Of a stretch of 64,000 nt of DNA, positions 17,958 to 25,539 are shown piece by piece. Below the pieces are notes generated by a model. The model did no database searches, was not told the origin of the DNA, and was given only the letters and a program-made list of their open reading frames with translations. Position 1 is the stretch's first letter; the number at the start of each line of letters is the position of its first letter. The position numbers and the translations under genes are program-made. This stretch comes from Promethearchaeota archaeon (GTDB taxonomy: Archaea; Asgardarchaeota; Lokiarchaeia; Sigyniarchaeales; SOKP01), in NCBI GenBank assembly GCA_048938895.1, contig JBHLLU010000017.1:1-64000 (forward strand), in the 5' to 3' direction.

Positions 17958-19112
17958 CTAAACTAATTCATGAATAACCTCAACAATACGTTTAGTTCGA
18001 GGATCACCTGTTAATGAGAGAACAATCTGATTCATAGCATAAGCATAACATAATTTAGCATCTGGATCCATAACACACATAGACCCTCCTAAACCACCCC
18101 AATAGAATGTTCTTGGATTACTCCCTCTTGGAATTAATAATTTTGGACTGTTTAATCCAAATCCTAATCCAAATCGAATTGGGTTCATAAGAACCAGATC
18201 TACACCACTAATTTGTTCTTCAATAGCCTTTTCTATCATTTGATTAGATAAGAATTGAATTCCCTCAAATTTGCCCCCATTAGCTAAAATAGATCCAACT
18301 TTCGCAATTGATCTCGCATTCCCATGTCCATTTGAAGCCGGTATTTCAGCAGCTCTCCACTCCCTTGTTCTTGTATCTTCATAAGTTAAAATAGGATTAA
18401 AAAGTGCTTTCATAAATAAGGTATTTGATTGTAGTTCCTCAAATCCTTGTTGTTGATCTGAAGTTGGGGGAACTAAATCAGCAACCCGAGAATCGATATC
18501 TTCTGTAAAACCAATGTGAAAGTCTGCATCTACTTTTGAGGTTACTTCATCTCGGAAAAATGTTCCTAAGGTTTTTCCAGAAACTCGCCTAACAATTTCC
18601 CCCAATAATTGCCCAAACGTGACTGCATGATATCCGCTTTTAGTTCCTGGTTCCCACATCGGTTTTTGTTCCGCTAATAACTCTACACTTCGATCCCAAT
18701 CATATAAATCCTCTTTCTTCATGGGTTTATCATATCCTGATAATCCTGCTGAATGACTTAAAAGATATTTAACAGGAATTTTTTCCTTTCCCGATTGTGC
18801 GAATTCTGGCCAATATTTAGCAACTGGAGCTTCTAAATTTATTAAGCCTCTGTCTGCAAGCATTAAAGTACAAAGAGCTGTCATAATTTTTGTTGTTGAA
18901 TAGACATTTACGATTGTATTTTCTTTCCAAAGGCGGGTTCTTTCTGCATCTGCATAGCCTGCCCATATATCAATAACAAAGTTCCCATTAATCGTAGCTG
19001 CGAATGAAGCACCTACCTCCAACCCTTCTTCAAAATTTTTTATGAATGCTTCTTTCACAGGTTCAAATCTCTTATCACAAAACCCATGTACTTCTACTTC
19101 TTTTTTTGCCAT
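17958..19112 (-). CDS. Serine hydrolase, beta-lactamase/esterase family
   Basis: STTK (SxxK), LLSHSAGL, YHA, WGGLGGS. Confidence 0.9.
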   Translation of the reverse strand: MAKKEVEVHGFCDKRFEPVKEAFIKNFEEGLEVGASFAATINGNFVIDIWAGYADAERTRLWKENTIVNVYSTTKIMTALCTLMLADRGLINLEAPVAKYWPEFAQSGKEKIPVKYLLSHSAGLSGYDKPMKKEDLYDWDRSVELLAEQKPMWEPGTKSGYHAVTFGQLLGEIVRRVSGKTLGTFFRDEVTSKVDADFHIGFTEDIDSRVADLVPPTSDQQQGFEELQSNTLFMKALFNPILTYEDTRTREWRAAEIPASNGHGNARSIAKVGSILANGGKFEGIQFLSNQMIEKAIEEQISGVDLVLMNPIRFGLGFGLNSPKLLIPRGSNPRTFYWGGLGGSMCVMDPDAKLCYAYAMNQIVLSLTGDPRTKRIVEVIHELV

Positions 19113-19340
19113 ATATATCCCATAATCAAATCTTTTTTGAAGATCTTAAATTTAGAATAAATTTAACCTTTCTGATCGCATGACTAAAATTAGTTGGTAA
19201 TACCTCATCATATGAAAATTGCTTTTGATGTCAGTTATAAAAAAAATAAAACCCTTATTCATAATAAAACAATTAAATCTTATATTGTAACATACCTATT
19301 ATCATAATTATAAATGAAATTCTAATTAAGGTAAAAATTA

Positions 19341-20390
19341 ATGGCTTTATCTCTATTAGGATGGTTTAATGGTATAACATCTTTTATAATCTTAGTTTTT
19401 TTTGTTCTTTTTGGACTCTATTGTTTATATCAATCTTATAGAACTAAAGCAAAGTTACTCAAATTTTTTGGACTAGCAATTTTACTTGAAGGATTTGCAT
19501 TCATTTTTCTAAATGTCGAATTTTTCTCTATTCTATTCTCCATTCTTCCTTTAAATTTCCCGGATAATTTGTATTTGCATGTTTTATTAGCTTGGAGTTG
19601 GCATGCTCCTGCAGCTTTTTTTATTTTATATATTGGTGTGTGGTTCCTCTTACCGAATTATAAAAAGTACCTCATATCTTCTATTTTAATATTTGGTTCT
19701 ATTTTTTTATTATTTCTACTATTTGATCCTGAAGGTTCACTTACTTTGGAACCCCCTGAGGTGCTAGGAACAAATTTATATAATGGTTATTTAACTGTAG
19801 GTTCAATACCATTCATTGTGGAATCTGCATTTTTTGTTTTGGGTTTTAGTTTGAATGGGTTTGGATTGTTATATAAAGCATCGAAATCAGAGGGGATAAT
19901 TAGACGAAAATTTATCCTTATTTCGATTGGGTTTATGACTAATTTTAGTTTTGTTTTATGGGATAGCCTTACTACCCCTGGATTATCAATTGCTTTTATT
20001 CGAGTTGGAATCCTAACTAGCGCTATAATTATTTATTTTGGATTAAGAGAAGAACCCGAAAATAAGCTAAAACTTGAAAAAGAAATAAAAGTTGAAGGAG
20101 ATCTTTTTAGAATATCCAATATTCGATCTGGTGAAATAACTGAAGAAGAAGTATCGATTTCAAAAGAAAAAAAAATCTGTCTTGTGTGTAAGGGAAAATT
20201 GGCGAGAGAATTGTACATGTGTCCTGAGTGTAGTACATTCTATTGCCTCAAATGTATTAGTAAATTGACAGATTTAGAAAATGCATGTTGGGTATGTGAA
20301 ACTCCATTTGATGAAACAAAACCCATAAAATTACATGATAATGAGAAAGAAAAGAAAGAAGTCAAAAATTCAAAAATAAAAAAAGAATAA
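19341..20390 (+). CDS. Multi-pass (about 7 TM) membrane protein with C-terminal Cys8 zinc-finger domain
   Basis: Hydrophobic helices then CLVC-x10-CPEC-x4-CLKC-x10-CWVC. Confidence 0.75.
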   Translation: MALSLLGWFNGITSFIILVFFVLFGLYCLYQSYRTKAKLLKFFGLAILLEGFAFIFLNVEFFSILFSILPLNFPDNLYLHVLLAWSWHAPAAFFILYIGVWFLLPNYKKYLISSILIFGSIFLLFLLFDPEGSLTLEPPEVLGTNLYNGYLTVGSIPFIVESAFFVLGFSLNGFGLLYKASKSEGIIRRKFILISIGFMTNFSFVLWDSLTTPGLSIAFIRVGILTSAIIIYFGLREEPENKLKLEKEIKVEGDLFRISNIRSGEITEEEVSISKEKKICLVCKGKLARELYMCPECSTFYCLKCISKLTDLENACWVCETPFDETKPIKLHDNEKEKKEVKNSKIKKE

Positions 20391-20483
20391 ATAGCATGAT
20401 GCAGTTAAAAATTAGGTTTAGCTTTTAGATGAATACCTTGATAATCTGCTAAAAAAATTTTAAAAAAAATAAAAAAAAGGAAT

Positions 20484-21707
20484 TTAGCGTTTTAAATTAG
20501 CATTAACCCAATCAGTATAACCTTTTGCGTCTAATTCTTTTGGTACAGCTTCAAAGAATTGAGCTGTTATTTCTTTTACATGTTTTGCGGCAATTGGATG
20601 GAACATCATAGCAAGATCTAGTCCTACAAGACTCAGAGCAAGAGCATTGATGATTTCCCATATAGGACCTCTATACTGGCGCAACCCCCATTCAGGGGCA
20701 ACCTTCTCACTCATCCATGCTTCTCTTGCACCCCATGCATTTGTAGTACCTCCACTAATAGGGTAAGCAAGATCTGTTTCTCCTAGAAGCCCAGCAATAC
20801 GCATCCTTTGATATATACTGAAGGAATACTCCATCCCATAGCCAAGAGTAGCGCATGTAGGGTCCATTACTATCCTATTTGGAGCAAGTCCTAATTCAAG
20901 AGCATCTTTATTCATCTTAATTTGATTGTTCAGATCCAAACTTGTCCACAGCAAGCAATTATGGTCATGTTTGACTGCCAATGGGATTTAAAGGTCAATT
21001 GATGAATTCAATTGACTTACTTCTTCCCACGTAGCTTTATCTGCCGCGGAAAGCATAAGGACTTCGCTTTCTGAGATAGCAGCCAATTCTGTGAACATTT
21101 CAACATCCTTCTTTTTGTTTCCTGAACACCCAATTATGACAGGAACGTCAACGGCTTGTAGAATCTCTTCTAGAAATTTTCTTGATTGTGAGACAGGTGC
21201 ATCACCCATAGCGGGATCAATTTCAAGTGAATGAAAGGTAATACATTCGGCTCCAAACTTCTTTACTGCAAACTTTGCCCATTCAGCGGGATCCGCGAGA
21301 ACTTTACCATATTCCTCCTTGATCGGCTTAGGAAGCATCATTTTCGAACCCATATCAAATACGTCATAGGTAACTAATGGAGGATTCGGATTTCGTTTTT
21401 CAAGTCCGAGGAAGTTATAAAAAGGAGGTACGACTTCTCCTCCTATCACAGCTTTTTTCCCATTAGAACGGACAAATTCTATGGTCTGGATTTTACCAGG
21501 ATAGTCAATATCAAGAGCAAATTTAGCAGGAGTCCATTCTGCTTTTCCAGGAACTCCCGGGAGCACCGCTTGAGCCGCGGTTTGCACAATACTTGGTAAC
21601 ATTTGAAGTTCGAGATATTCGGCAAATAGATCTACGTCTTTCAACTCAATTTCTTCAGTATCCTTCATAAACTCTGCGAGTTTCTTACTTAATTCGTCAA
21701 ATGAAAT
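20484..21707 (-). CDS. cdhD: Acetyl-CoA decarbonylase/synthase delta subunit (corrinoid FeS protein small subunit), interrupted by a 30-nt candidate intron at 20988-21017
   Basis: ORFs 20988-21668 and 20484-20981 are in the same frame and together give CdhD/AcsD motifs (IGGE..PFY, DPAEWAK, VPVIIGCSG, IVMDPT..LGYGMEY, AWGAREAW, MFHP). Probable ATT start at 21707, otherwise ATG at 21668. Confidence 0.9.
20988..21017 (-). other. Candidate bulge-helix-bulge (BHB) mRNA intron in cdhD
   Basis: mRNA UGGGA-A-GAAG-UA^A-GUCAAUUGA-AUUCA-UCAAUUGAC-CUUU-AA^A-UCCCA. Central helix GAAG/CUUU, two 3-nt bulges, 9-bp intron stem; canonical cuts give W-E-E-V-I-P-L in frame. Confidence 0.8.
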
Positions 21708-22001
21708 TTATATCACTTTTGTTGATTAATTGCTATTTTGATAGATAGACAATTGTAGAATGGAATTTAAGTTTATTTAAAAAGGATTTACGACGGAATT
21801 AGTCATTTGATGTAAGATTGTGATCCCACATCAATCGTTTAAAGTTTAAAAATCAATTATAGGATACAGAATTTATGAATTAATCTTTTAAGGAAAATTA
21901 TCTTCTTAATTTTTAACCGAAGTGTAGAATTTAATCAATAATATATTTTGTACTGAAATCTTTTATCTTTAAAACGAGTAAATAGTAGGATCTTAAAAAT
22001 T

Positions 22002-23834
22002 ATGCGTATTTCCATGCATCAGGATCTTGAACGAGCCATGAAGCTTATAGGGGAGGGGAAAATAGAGGAACCTTTACAAATATTTGATAATTTTAAAAAT
22101 TTAGAACATATAACCCCAAGAGATAAACACTATTATCGTTTTTTTAAAGGGACTATTGTTTTTCAGATGGGAAAGCTTCAAGAGGGCCTTAAAATAGCAG
22201 AACAAGATTATAAAGAGAATGAAAGTAAGAATAATCCTTTATTTCTAATCGATGCAGTCTTTTTAAAATGGAACATCTTACTTCTTTTAGGTAAAGGCCA
22301 TGAGGAGCGAGAAAACGTTATATTTTGTGAGAAATTGCTTAAATCTGTTACAAAAGAATCCCCCTCCGAATTAAAATTAAGAGAAGGTTTTCTTTTTTGT
22401 ATGAAGGGATTTTTTTTATATTGGGAACAAAAGTATGATGAGGCTATAGAACTTTATAAAAAAAGTCTCTTAATTTTTGAAAAGTATGTCATTACTTCAA
22501 TATTGATCCCCTTTACTTTAAATTTGCTAGGATTATCTTATAGAGCTAAAGGAGAATTAGATTTAGCATTAGAATCTCATAAAAAATGTATAGAACTTTC
22601 CAGAGGAAGTAGTATAGCAATCAATATGAGAACTGGAGTCACTTATAGTAATATTGGTGAAATTTACTTTCAAAAAGGTTCTCTAGATCAAGCAAGTGAA
22701 TATTACAAAAAAAGTCTAAAAGTTTTTGAACAATATAAAACAGCCTTAGCAGTATCTCGAATAGGAATCAGTTTTGATAGCTTGATAAAAGTCTATTTAT
22801 ACAAGCGTTCTCCTGAAGAAGCACAACAACACTTAAACCTTTTCTATCAATACATAAAAAGAAATAATATTTCAAAAAATTTCTCATGGTATAGATTAGC
22901 AAAAGCACGAATGCTAAAATCAAGTCCTCGTATCCGAAATAGAGCCGAAGCCGAAAAAATTCTAAGAGAATTAATTGGGGAACATCGTGGAGTAGATAAT
23001 GAATTTATAATAGCTATAATCGAGCTTTGTGATTTTTATTTTGAAGAATTACGTCTAACAAACGAAATAGAAATAATTGATGATATTCAGCCCCTTATTG
23101 AAAGGTTACTAAAGGAATCAAAACGAACAAATTCCTACACACTCCAAGCTCAAACTTACTTATTACATGGAAAAATATCTTTACTTCAGATAAATATGAG
23201 TGATGCTCGGAGATATTTAACTCAAGCCCAAAGTATTGCTGAGGAGCATGGCCTTCAATTGTTAGCTAGAGAGATATCAATGGAGCATGATAAATTATTA
23301 GATCAATTAGATGAATGGGAGGACCTTAAGATAAAAGAAACCTCAATTTCGGAAAGAATGAACTTAGCATCGTTAAAGGAATCTATAGATTTACTACAAC
23401 GTAAACGTGAGTTAAAAGCACCAGAATTAACTGATGAAGAACCTATTTTGCTTTTAATAATATCAACAGGAGGGGTTCTCCTATTTTCATATTCTTTTTC
23501 TAACGAATTAAAAATCGATGATGAACTTTTCGGGGGATTTTTATCGGCAATAACATCTTTTAGTGATGAAATTTTCTCTCAGGGGCTTGATCGAGCTAAG
23601 TTCGGTTCATATACAGTTCTTATGAATAATGTTGGACCTTTCTTTTTTTGTTATTTACTTAAGGGTCAAACTTACTTAGCAAAGAAAAAGTTATCTAATT
23701 TTACAGAAAACTTACAAAAGAATTCCTCGATGATGGAAACGTTGAATAAATTTAATCAAAGAGGTCAAGTTATCGAGCTCAAAGATTTTCCCTTTCTTGA
23801 AGGTTTTATACAAGGAATTTTTAATAAAAAATAA
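22002..23834 (+). CDS. TPR-repeat protein with C-terminal longin/roadblock-like domain
   Basis: TPR units (LNLLGLSYRAKGELDLALESHKKC; YSNIGEIYFQKGSLDQASEYYKKSL); C-terminal LLIISTGGVLLFSYSF...LFGGFLSAITSFSDEI. Confidence 0.75.
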   Translation: MRISMHQDLERAMKLIGEGKIEEPLQIFDNFKNLEHITPRDKHYYRFFKGTIVFQMGKLQEGLKIAEQDYKENESKNNPLFLIDAVFLKWNILLLLGKGHEERENVIFCEKLLKSVTKESPSELKLREGFLFCMKGFFLYWEQKYDEAIELYKKSLLIFEKYVITSILIPFTLNLLGLSYRAKGELDLALESHKKCIELSRGSSIAINMRTGVTYSNIGEIYFQKGSLDQASEYYKKSLKVFEQYKTALAVSRIGISFDSLIKVYLYKRSPEEAQQHLNLFYQYIKRNNISKNFSWYRLAKARMLKSSPRIRNRAEAEKILRELIGEHRGVDNEFIIAIIELCDFYFEELRLTNEIEIIDDIQPLIERLLKESKRTNSYTLQAQTYLLHGKISLLQINMSDARRYLTQAQSIAEEHGLQLLAREISMEHDKLLDQLDEWEDLKIKETSISERMNLASLKESIDLLQRKRELKAPELTDEEPILLLIISTGGVLLFSYSFSNELKIDDELFGGFLSAITSFSDEIFSQGLDRAKFGSYTVLMNNVGPFFFCYLLKGQTYLAKKKLSNFTENLQKNSSMMETLNKFNQRGQVIELKDFPFLEGFIQGIFNKK

Positions 23835-23883
23835 AATCTTTGTTAAAGTTCAGTAGTATATCTAAAAACAAAATTATAAATTT

Positions 23884-25539
23884 TTAAGGTTTACTCAGTT
23901 TTGCTATTTCTTGCTCTTCCAGTTTTTTAAAATCAATTTTACCAACTAGTGTTTTTGGTAATTGAGTGCTAAATACGATCTCCCTCGGACAGCTCCATTT
24001 TAACAAATGTTCTTGACAAAAATTGATTAACTTGTCTTTCATTTCAGTACTTTCTTTATTTTTATCTTTTAAAACTACATATGCTTTTACTTTTTGAACC
24101 TGTTTTTCATCAGGAACACCAATCACACATGCTTCAAGAACATCAGGATGTTTATAGAGAACATCTTCAACTTGAGCAGGATAAACATTGTATCCAGAGG
24201 ATTTTATCATTCGCTTAAGTCTAATTTTAAAATAAAAAAAGCCATCTTCATCCATGGTGGCAATATCTCCTGTGTGGAGCCAGATTCTACCATCTTTGTG
24301 TCTTCGTAATGTTTTAGCAGTTTCTTCTGGCATATCTAAATAGCCTAGCATAACTGCTGGACCATGAATGCATAGTTCACCTTCTTGACCAACAGGGGCT
24401 TCATCTTCATTGTTTATTTCAACAACTTTCATCATCATATCTGGGAAAGGTATGCCAATACTTCCCTCTCGATATTCCCCTAATGGCATAGCACAAATGC
24501 CAGTTACGGCTTCAGTTAATCCATAACCTTCTCTTAGTTGGACCGTTGATCCATTATCTCTGCATATTTTTTCAAATTTTTCCTTAGTAGTCCGTGGTAA
24601 GGTATCTGCTCCACAAAATGCTGCTTTTAAGAAACTTAAATCAGTTTTTTGAAATTTTGGATTTCTATTAAGTGCTTCATAAAGGGTTGGCACACCAAAT
24701 AATAGCGTTGGTTTTTTTTTATCAATTAGATCTGCCACTTGATCAGGGGTAAAAGAGGGAACTAAAATTGTTTTTCCACCTCCCATGAATACAGCATTAA
24801 CACATACTCCCAATCCGAAACCATGAAAGATAGGTAATATTGCTAACGCTGAATCTTGATCCGATAGATTCATCCAAGTGGCTACTTGAGTTCCTTCTGA
24901 TATAATATTATAGTTTGAAAGCATAATCCCCTTCGGAACACCAGTCGTTCCGCCAGAATATAGTATTACAGCCATTTCGTCGGGATTCATTGGAGATGTA
25001 GCTATTTTTGGGTAAGATTTACTCATGATATCTTTCCACCAATGAACTTTTGTGCTGCTAGGGGATAGTTCCATTTCAGGACTCATCTGAACTAAAATCA
25101 ATACCTTTAATTCTGTAGTATCTATTATCTTCTCAAAATTATTATATACATTGTCAATAGTGAGTGCAAAAGAACTTTTACTTAAATTTAGAAAAAATTC
25201 AATCTGATTTGGAGGACTTAAAGGATGAATCATGCTTGCGATTGCTCCGATTTTATTTATAGCATAAAAGCAAATAACTCCTTGAGGAGAACTCGGCATA
25301 GCTATTGTCATTCGATCTCCCTTTTTAAGTCCTAAACTTTGTAAAGCTTCAGCACATTGGTCAATTTGTTCTATTAACTGTTCATAAGTTGATTCATTTC
25401 CCATAAAATCATATGCAACAGCATCAGGATAAATATTTGATGTATTTACTAAAGCTTTATACATAGTAGATTTAGGATAATCAATATGTTCAGGAACGTG
25501 TTTATCATAAAAATTCAACCAAGGTTTTTTTTCATACAA
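23884..25539 (-). CDS. Long-chain fatty acid--CoA ligase (AMP-binding)
   Basis: YSGGTTGVPKG, EGYGLTE, HTGDI, LPKTLVGK. Confidence 0.92.
   Translation of the reverse strand: MYEKKPWLNFYDKHVPEHIDYPKSTMYKALVNTSNIYPDAVAYDFMGNESTYEQLIEQIDQCAEALQSLGLKKGDRMTIAMPSSPQGVICFYAINKIGAIASMIHPLSPPNQIEFFLNLSKSSFALTIDNVYNNFEKIIDTTELKVLILVQMSPEMELSPSSTKVHWWKDIMSKSYPKIATSPMNPDEMAVILYSGGTTGVPKGIMLSNYNIISEGTQVATWMNLSDQDSALAILPIFHGFGLGVCVNAVFMGGGKTILVPSFTPDQVADLIDKKKPTLLFGVPTLYEALNRNPKFQKTDLSFLKAAFCGADTLPRTTKEKFEKICRDNGSTVQLREGYGLTEAVTGICAMPLGEYREGSIGIPFPDMMMKVVEINNEDEAPVGQEGELCIHGPAVMLGYLDMPEETAKTLRRHKDGRIWLHTGDIATMDEDGFFYFKIRLKRMIKSSGYNVYPAQVEDVLYKHPDVLEACVIGVPDEKQVQKVKAYVVLKDKNKESTEMKDKLINFCQEHLLKWSCPREIVFSTQLPKTLVGKIDFKKLEEQEIAKLSKP

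Follow-up and report, generated by a model that had tools for sequence, protein, structure and literature searches.

Candidate bulge-helix-bulge mini-introns in the mRNA of cdhD, a core Wood-Ljungdahl gene of Asgard archaea

Results

The interrupted cdhD locus

The stretch of DNA analysed here (hereafter the window) comprises positions 1 to 64,000 of contig JBHLLU010000017.1 in assembly GCA_048938895.1 of a Promethearchaeota archaeon, and its minus strand carries a cdhD gene that is interrupted by a short insert (Table 1). An original prediction, made from the letters of the window, had described two cdhD halves in one frame, separated by 30 nt that end in an in-frame TAA; we confirmed this arrangement and placed the insert at 21017..20988. 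On sequence grounds, the gene is cdhD, encoding the delta subunit of acetyl-CoA decarbonylase/synthase (ACDS), the small subunit of the corrinoid iron-sulfur protein. The read-through protein scores 334.4 bits against TIGR00381 (cdhD), above the curated cut-off of 252.9, and the two open reading frames (ORFs) match consecutive positions of the CdhD profile PF03599 (7-140 and 139-227), in agreement with the identity originally proposed. The suggestion of an Asgard host was likewise borne out for this Lokiarchaeia-type archaeon, as the same-genus orthologs come from Promethearchaeota/Promethearchaeia, a few having been deposited under the names of other Asgard phyla.

The 30-nt insert is real DNA. 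Logan contigs from two samples span it without differences (record 3 of run X1, 20892-21898; record 9 of run X2, 20556-21471), and the possibility of an assembly artefact was therefore not borne out; the sequencing runs listed, 15 in number, are all DNA, and run X1 may be that of the source sample. A blastn-short search of the whole genome with the insert, extended by 8 nt at either end, returned the insert itself and otherwise only matches of at most 20 nt with E values of at least 0.47. Because it is single-copy in the genome, the insert does not belong to a repeat family. The genome is 98.7% complete, and the cdhD of the window is the only copy found in it; a second intact cdhD beside a decaying one, the situation that would have suggested a pseudogene, was not found, and the downstream exon of this copy is free of decay. 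The other full-length PF03599 match, on contig C144, is the gamma subunit gene, cdhE. Both cdhE and cdhC are retained in the genome, and the ACDS genes are dispersed, since cdhE (C144) and cdhC (C28) sit on contigs other than that of cdhD.

Table 1. Coordinates of the interrupted cdhD gene, its predicted pre-mRNA structure and related inserts
Feature	Position	Strand	Details
cdhD	21668..20484	minus	single frame of 394 codons when read through, interrupted by one TAA
ORF 1	21668..20988	minus	226 aa, same frame as ORF 2
ORF 2	20981..20484	minus	165 aa, TTG start
cdhD exon 1 (predicted)	21018..21668	minus	217 codons; ATG at 21668..21666; ends ...TWEEV; end set by the bulge-helix-bulge (BHB) rule and ortholog alignment
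Candidate BHB intron, 30 nt	20988..21017	minus	in-frame TAA at 20990..20988; equals the gap of 13 same-genus orthologs
cdhD exon 2 (predicted)	20484..20987	minus	167 codons plus stop, starts IPLAVK...; nonsynonymous divergence (dN) 0.03-0.10, synonymous divergence (dS) saturated against orthologs
Whole BHB-forming stretch	20977..21035	minus	minimum free energy (MFE) fold, RNAalifold consensus, pair counts
Outer helix	21035..21025 with 20986..20977	minus	(G)UGGGA/UCCCA(U) and 4 further pairs; 10 pairs, exon bases on both sides
Unpaired A	21024	minus	between outer and central helix
Central helix, 4 bp	21023..21020 with 20993..20990	minus	GAAG/CUUU
Bulges, 3 nt each, on opposite strands	UAA 21019..21017; AAA 20989..20987	minus	MFE fold
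Inner stem, perfect 9 bp	21016..21008 with 21002..20994	minus	closes a 5-nt loop (stem-loop 21016..20994)
cdhD insert site 1	WEEV/IPL		6 instances: 30 nt (five), 29 nt (one)
cdhD insert site 2	CAT/LGYG		17 instances: 36 nt (twelve), 30 nt (three), 33 nt, 57 nt
cdhD insert site 3	DPT/CAT		4 instances: 33 nt
Candidate intron of the PurM-like gene	C101:4435-4464 (= L117:1036-1065)	plus	30 nt, two TGA, BHB

A bulge-helix-bulge fold spans the insert

The original prediction proposed that the pre-mRNA around the insert folds as a BHB motif, the substrate of the archaeal splicing endonuclease EndA, and the structure that it described is the minimum-energy fold of 21040..20970. This fold has a free energy of -23.4 kcal/mol; 200 shuffled sequences gave -9.8 +/- 2.4 kcal/mol (z score -5.7), and none of them was as stable as the cdhD fold. 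An identical consensus was predicted independently by RNAalifold, with no structural input. Both bulges are placed 3' of their own strand of the central helix, an arrangement that we take, from tRNA numbering, to be that of pre-tRNAs with an intron at position 37/38.

Removal of the insert yields the sequence of uninterrupted relatives

We searched 40 related genomes for cdhD. Of the 18 full or near-full cdhD genes found within the same genus, 13 (1131-1152 nt) have no interruption and read ...WEEVIPLAVK... or ...WEDVIPLAVK... at the position of the insert. The DNA alignment with the same-genus orthologs has a gap of exactly 30 nt, as the original prediction had anticipated, and cutting after the second base of each bulge produces precisely the sequence of the 13 intron-less genes; the EndA rule thus removes the 30 nt that these orthologs lack. 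The other five of the 18 carry inserts. In genomes G016 and G005, cdhD has a 30-nt insert without a stop at the site occupied in the window and, downstream, a 36-nt insert with two TAA codons; cdhD of G019 and G022 has the 36-nt insert only. The cdhD gene of G004 bears a 29-nt, frame-shifting insert at the site of the window's insert, with an intact frame downstream, and the cut rule restores the frame; a 30-nt form of this intron is present in L223. A contig of a further run, X4, matches the cdhD of the window up to the intron boundary (21022) and then continues directly into the exon-2-like sequence of a relative (WEDVIPLAVKYD). Because this contig, which comes from the same sediment study, joins the exons directly, intron-less relatives co-occur with the organism in that study.

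Inserts at three sites of cdhD follow one cut rule

A larger cdhD sample was assembled from the best 80 of 416 and the best 80 of 425 relatives in genome and metagenome collections, ranked by tblastn, together with the genes of the window and G004, giving 162 sequences, of which 153 are distinct. Twenty-three sequences contain 27 inserts of 29, 30, 33, 36 or 57 nt, which fall at only three sites (Table 1). Site 2 is occupied in L038, L046, L050, L055, L075, L087, L159, L160, L163, L164, L169, L183, L196, L207, L217, L223 and L229, and site 3 in L044, L066, L169 and L209. Sites 2 and 3 lie just 3 codons apart; L169 is interrupted at both, and the gene of the window at neither. For each insert, the 2-8 possible cuts that give back the peptide of the orthologs were examined for a BHB, and a perfect 4-bp central helix with 3-nt bulges was found at such a cut in 23 of the 27. 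After rule-based removal, 152 of the 153 sequences are free of stops; 139 of these are full-length, and 13 are partial or have a non-ATG start. The single cdhD with an internal stop that no BHB insert explains, L225 on a metagenome contig, may be a true pseudogene or reflect a sequencing error.

The paired positions of the motif covary, and the compensatory changes foreseen by the original prediction are present at site 1. In the five sequences compared there, 93.8% of cells are paired, as against 20-48% in controls with slid partners. Changes on both sides affect 8 of 23 pairs, a count reached by 1 of 500 shuffles, and the covariation score was reached by none of 500. One of the covarying pairs links an intron base to an exon codon (GAA/GAU) at its third position. 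At site 2, the six sequences that were aligned first show two pairs with changes on both sides, a count that 39 of 500 shuffles reached; this is weaker evidence because these six sequences are nearly invariant. The inner stems of the site-2 variants L217 and L229 are quite different, and their central helix is compensated.

The exons of the carriers are under strong purifying selection. Between pairs of carriers, dN is 0.06-0.12 and dS is saturated, with dN/dS (omega) at about 0.02-0.06 where it could be computed, and constraint on the 167 codons after the intron is no weaker than on the part before it.

A second interrupted gene and the genome-wide scan

A comparable insert lies in an unrelated gene on contig C101, which encodes a PurM-like protein with AIRS N- and C-terminal domains. 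In 18 orthologs of the PurM-like gene, exactly this 30-nt stretch is absent and the product reads ...GFHVTRAALRD..., as the cut rule yields. The ortholog in G024 (L142) has a 29-nt version at the same site with compensated stem changes, and its ORF is intact only once this version is removed. Both inserts form textbook BHB folds (-23.1 kcal/mol in C101 and -27.8 kcal/mol in G024).

The original prediction also proposed a scan of the genome for other ORFs split by BHB motifs. We looked for BHB motifs at which excision would join two open frames, each at least 60 codons long; the cdhD insert obtained the top score for BHB and ORF rescue combined, and the C101 insert was also found. Most of the remaining strong matches are gene junctions when inspected by eye (C152:32291, C144:49072, C60:24824 and C95:40421), and C130:12616-12645 was rejected as an intron because it is a TldD/PmbA gene boundary. 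A tblastn search for paralogs across candidate junctions gave matches to real and mirrored candidates alike.

Splicing enzymes and tRNA introns of the genome

Two genes of the EndA family (PF01974), on C83 and C123, encode proteins of about 200 aa each. In alignments with the two-domain enzyme, one of them corresponds to its catalytic half and the other to its structural half, and the structural-half paralog lacks the histidine of the Tyr-His-Lys triad. The ligase RtcB is encoded on C5. A broad-specificity (alpha-beta)2 EndA with a specificity-broadening loop has been reported for Asgard archaea (PMC5829648), and the EndA pair of this genome fits such an enzyme.

ARAGORN detected only 24 tRNA genes in the 98.7%-complete genome, 13 of them with introns, and multiple or non-canonical introns probably keep many further tRNA genes from detection. 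These counts agree with a preprint which reports that, in some Asgard archaea, most tRNA genes are interrupted (bioRxiv 10.64898/2026.10.13.758758).

Scattered distribution of the candidate introns

The presence of the introns was mapped on a protein tree of 139 cdhD sequences, a shallow gene tree in which 49 of 132 inner branches are unresolved. The minimum number of changes on this tree is 5 for site 1 (5 carriers on the tree), 12 for site 2 (15 carriers) and 4 for site 3 (4 carriers); for presence versus absence overall, well-supported branches require at least 8 changes. Intron presence can differ even between near-identical proteins, as in L209 and L202. Because introns at the same site are similar in sequence, this scattered pattern points to many precise losses, to transfer between alleles by recombination, or to both.

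Discussion

We infer, with a probability of roughly 85%, that the inserts described here are mRNA introns of Promethearchaeia that are spliced by EndA and RtcB. In the proposed mechanism, exon and intron bases of the pre-mRNA would form a helix-bulge-helix-bulge-helix, the two-subunit EndA would cut each 3-nt bulge behind its second base, and ligation of the exons by RtcB would leave an mRNA of 383 codons that encodes a normal ACDS delta subunit.

Several observations weigh against this interpretation. The BHB motif of the window is slightly relaxed, because one unpaired A (21024) separates the outer and central helices, and 4 of the 27 cdhD inserts have one mismatch in the central helix (3 of 4 pairs). 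Most insert lengths (30, 33, 36 and 57 nt) can be divided by three, the exceptions being two inserts of 29 nt, one in cdhD and one in the PurM-like gene. Such an excess is unexpected for pure RNA removal and may be an artefact of the ranking of loci by tblastn, in which frameshifts are penalised. No stop occurs in the site-1 inserts of L046 and L050, which could in principle be translated. Independent origins number only the three cdhD sites and the one in the PurM-like gene, and the counts of inserts overstate independence because the intron carriers are related. Finally, the genome-wide scan gave 1081 BHB-split ORF matches against 1086 for a mirrored, non-substrate control, with no enrichment at any helix threshold; with a filter against nearby ATG starts, the figures were 297 and 316, and this filter also dropped the true PurM-like match. 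Because the scan shows no excess, either ORF-breaking BHB introns are few in this genome or the scan criteria are weak and miss fainter ones.

One alternative explanation is that EndA cuts the motif and the exons are rarely or never rejoined, so that the insert acts as a cleavage switch lowering cdhD expression. Cleavage of a BHB without joining of exons occurs in rRNA processing, and both the motif and the enzymes are present here. Nevertheless, we consider such a switch very unlikely: the cuts at all four independent sites fall exactly where ligation restores the ortholog sequence, which is needless for mere cleavage, and the gene concerned is the sole cdhD copy, with a downstream exon under strong purifying selection.

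Alternatively, the insert could be kept in the mRNA and dealt with by the ribosome, through read-through of the stop (a 10-aa insertion), through bypass, or through separate translation of two CdhD pieces that then assemble. The predominance of insert lengths divisible by three, the two stop-less site-1 variants and the TTG that follows the insert at 20981 are in line with one or another of these routes. Read-through is impossible for the 29-nt variants of the two genes, and each site-2 insert contains two TAA codons. Bypass of the gene-60 type needs matching take-off and landing codons, and here the codon before the insert (GUA) differs from that before resumption (UAA). It is also unlikely that a barrel protein would be broken into subunits at three different places in close relatives. 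All of these routes leave the conserved BHB and its covariation unexplained, and we give translational handling hardly any credence.

It is no less improbable that a small palindromic insertion has killed cdhD and that its BHB-like fold is incidental. The insert does contain an in-frame stop, cdhD stands apart from the other cdh genes, and no cdhD match was found in 4 of the 24 same-genus genomes, so that its loss may be tolerated. Against inactivation, the 167 downstream codons show no further damage, and dN/dS among the carriers is far below 1, with dS saturated. Inserts at this one site occur in six distinct sequences of separate assemblies and show compensatory changes, and one cut rule is obeyed at three cdhD sites and in a second gene. 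Furthermore, the insert is single-copy without a repeat family, and the gene is the sole cdhD of a genome that has kept cdhC and cdhE.

A MITE-like (miniature inverted-repeat transposable element) repeated palindromic insertion was rejected because the insert is single-copy in the genome, and no covariance-model match to a group I or group II intron or any other Rfam family was found: Rfam gave no match in the window at the gathering score, and none at E values up to 1 within 20800-21200.

If the inserts are indeed spliced, they belong to a known kind of intron found in a new setting. To our knowledge, cbf5 of Crenarchaeota has been the only archaeal protein gene with known BHB introns. EndA-dependent introns are documented for the cbf5 pre-mRNAs of Desulfurococcales and Sulfolobales (PMC2738675). 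They resemble those considered here in being short introns of a protein gene with BHB-like EndA substrates and a patchy distribution among relatives, for which both gain and loss were inferred (PMC2738675). In contrast, the genes here are cdhD and a PurM-like gene, the hosts are Promethearchaeota (Asgard) instead of Crenarchaeota, one gene is interrupted at three positions, and nearly identical alleles differ in whether they have an intron. Moreover, splicing of cbf5 was demonstrated by experiment, whereas here we infer it from sequence. What sets the present case apart is the Asgard lineage, the metabolic role of the genes, the use of more than one position within a gene and a fast turnover, the intron kind itself being known from cbf5. 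The reference list of a 2025 paper on EndA still names only the cbf5 papers for introns in protein genes.

The closest parallel within Asgard archaea is offered by their non-canonical tRNA introns, which share the predicted machinery and motif of the cdhD insert. In cdhD, however, the substrate is an mRNA, and removal must restore a reading frame and not the body of a tRNA. The main text of the preprint on interrupted Asgard tRNA genes (bioRxiv 10.64898/2026.10.13.758758) contains no occurrence of 'mRNA', 'cbf5' or 'open reading frame'. Our full-text literature searches gave no report of BHB introns in Asgard mRNAs; the supplements of that preprint, with a census of intervening sequences, could bear on this novelty.

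In eukaryotes, a very short intron of the HAC1/XBP1 mRNA is removed without the spliceosome by an endonuclease acting at stem-loops, followed by a tRNA-type ligase, and this splicing is regulated by stress. The likeness to the present case is that a very short intron would be cut from an mRNA without a spliceosome, changing what is translated. The differences are that the enzyme is Ire1 there and would be EndA here, that a pair of stem-loops is recognised there and a BHB here, and that regulation by stress is shown only for HAC1/XBP1.

These findings suggest that tRNA-type splicing of mRNA may be no crenarchaeal curiosity, as it would affect a core Wood-Ljungdahl gene and an unrelated second gene in Asgard archaea. 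With introns at several positions, present in some species and absent from others, these genes would lend themselves to the study of how introns come and go in the lineage closest to eukaryotes. There may also be a practical consequence: because such genes resemble pseudogenes or split ORFs, reconstructions from Asgard metagenome-assembled genomes may wrongly score the Wood-Ljungdahl pathway and others as incomplete. We also put forward, as a tentative and rather doubtful extension, that Promethearchaeia possess dynamic, EndA-dependent mini-introns in protein genes, which are quickly gained, lost or moved between alleles, and whose splicing perhaps serves as an expression switch resembling that of HAC1/XBP1; the original prediction likewise allowed that splicing could gate production of the corrinoid iron-sulfur protein. 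If this extension were true, tRNA-type machinery would routinely splice mRNAs during gene expression in the archaea most closely related to eukaryotes.

Other features of the window

No tRNA genes were found in the 64,000-nt window. The neighbours of cdhD (17958..25539) are a gene of the beta-lactamase family and genes for a membrane protein without a Pfam match, a TPR protein and an AMP-binding enzyme.
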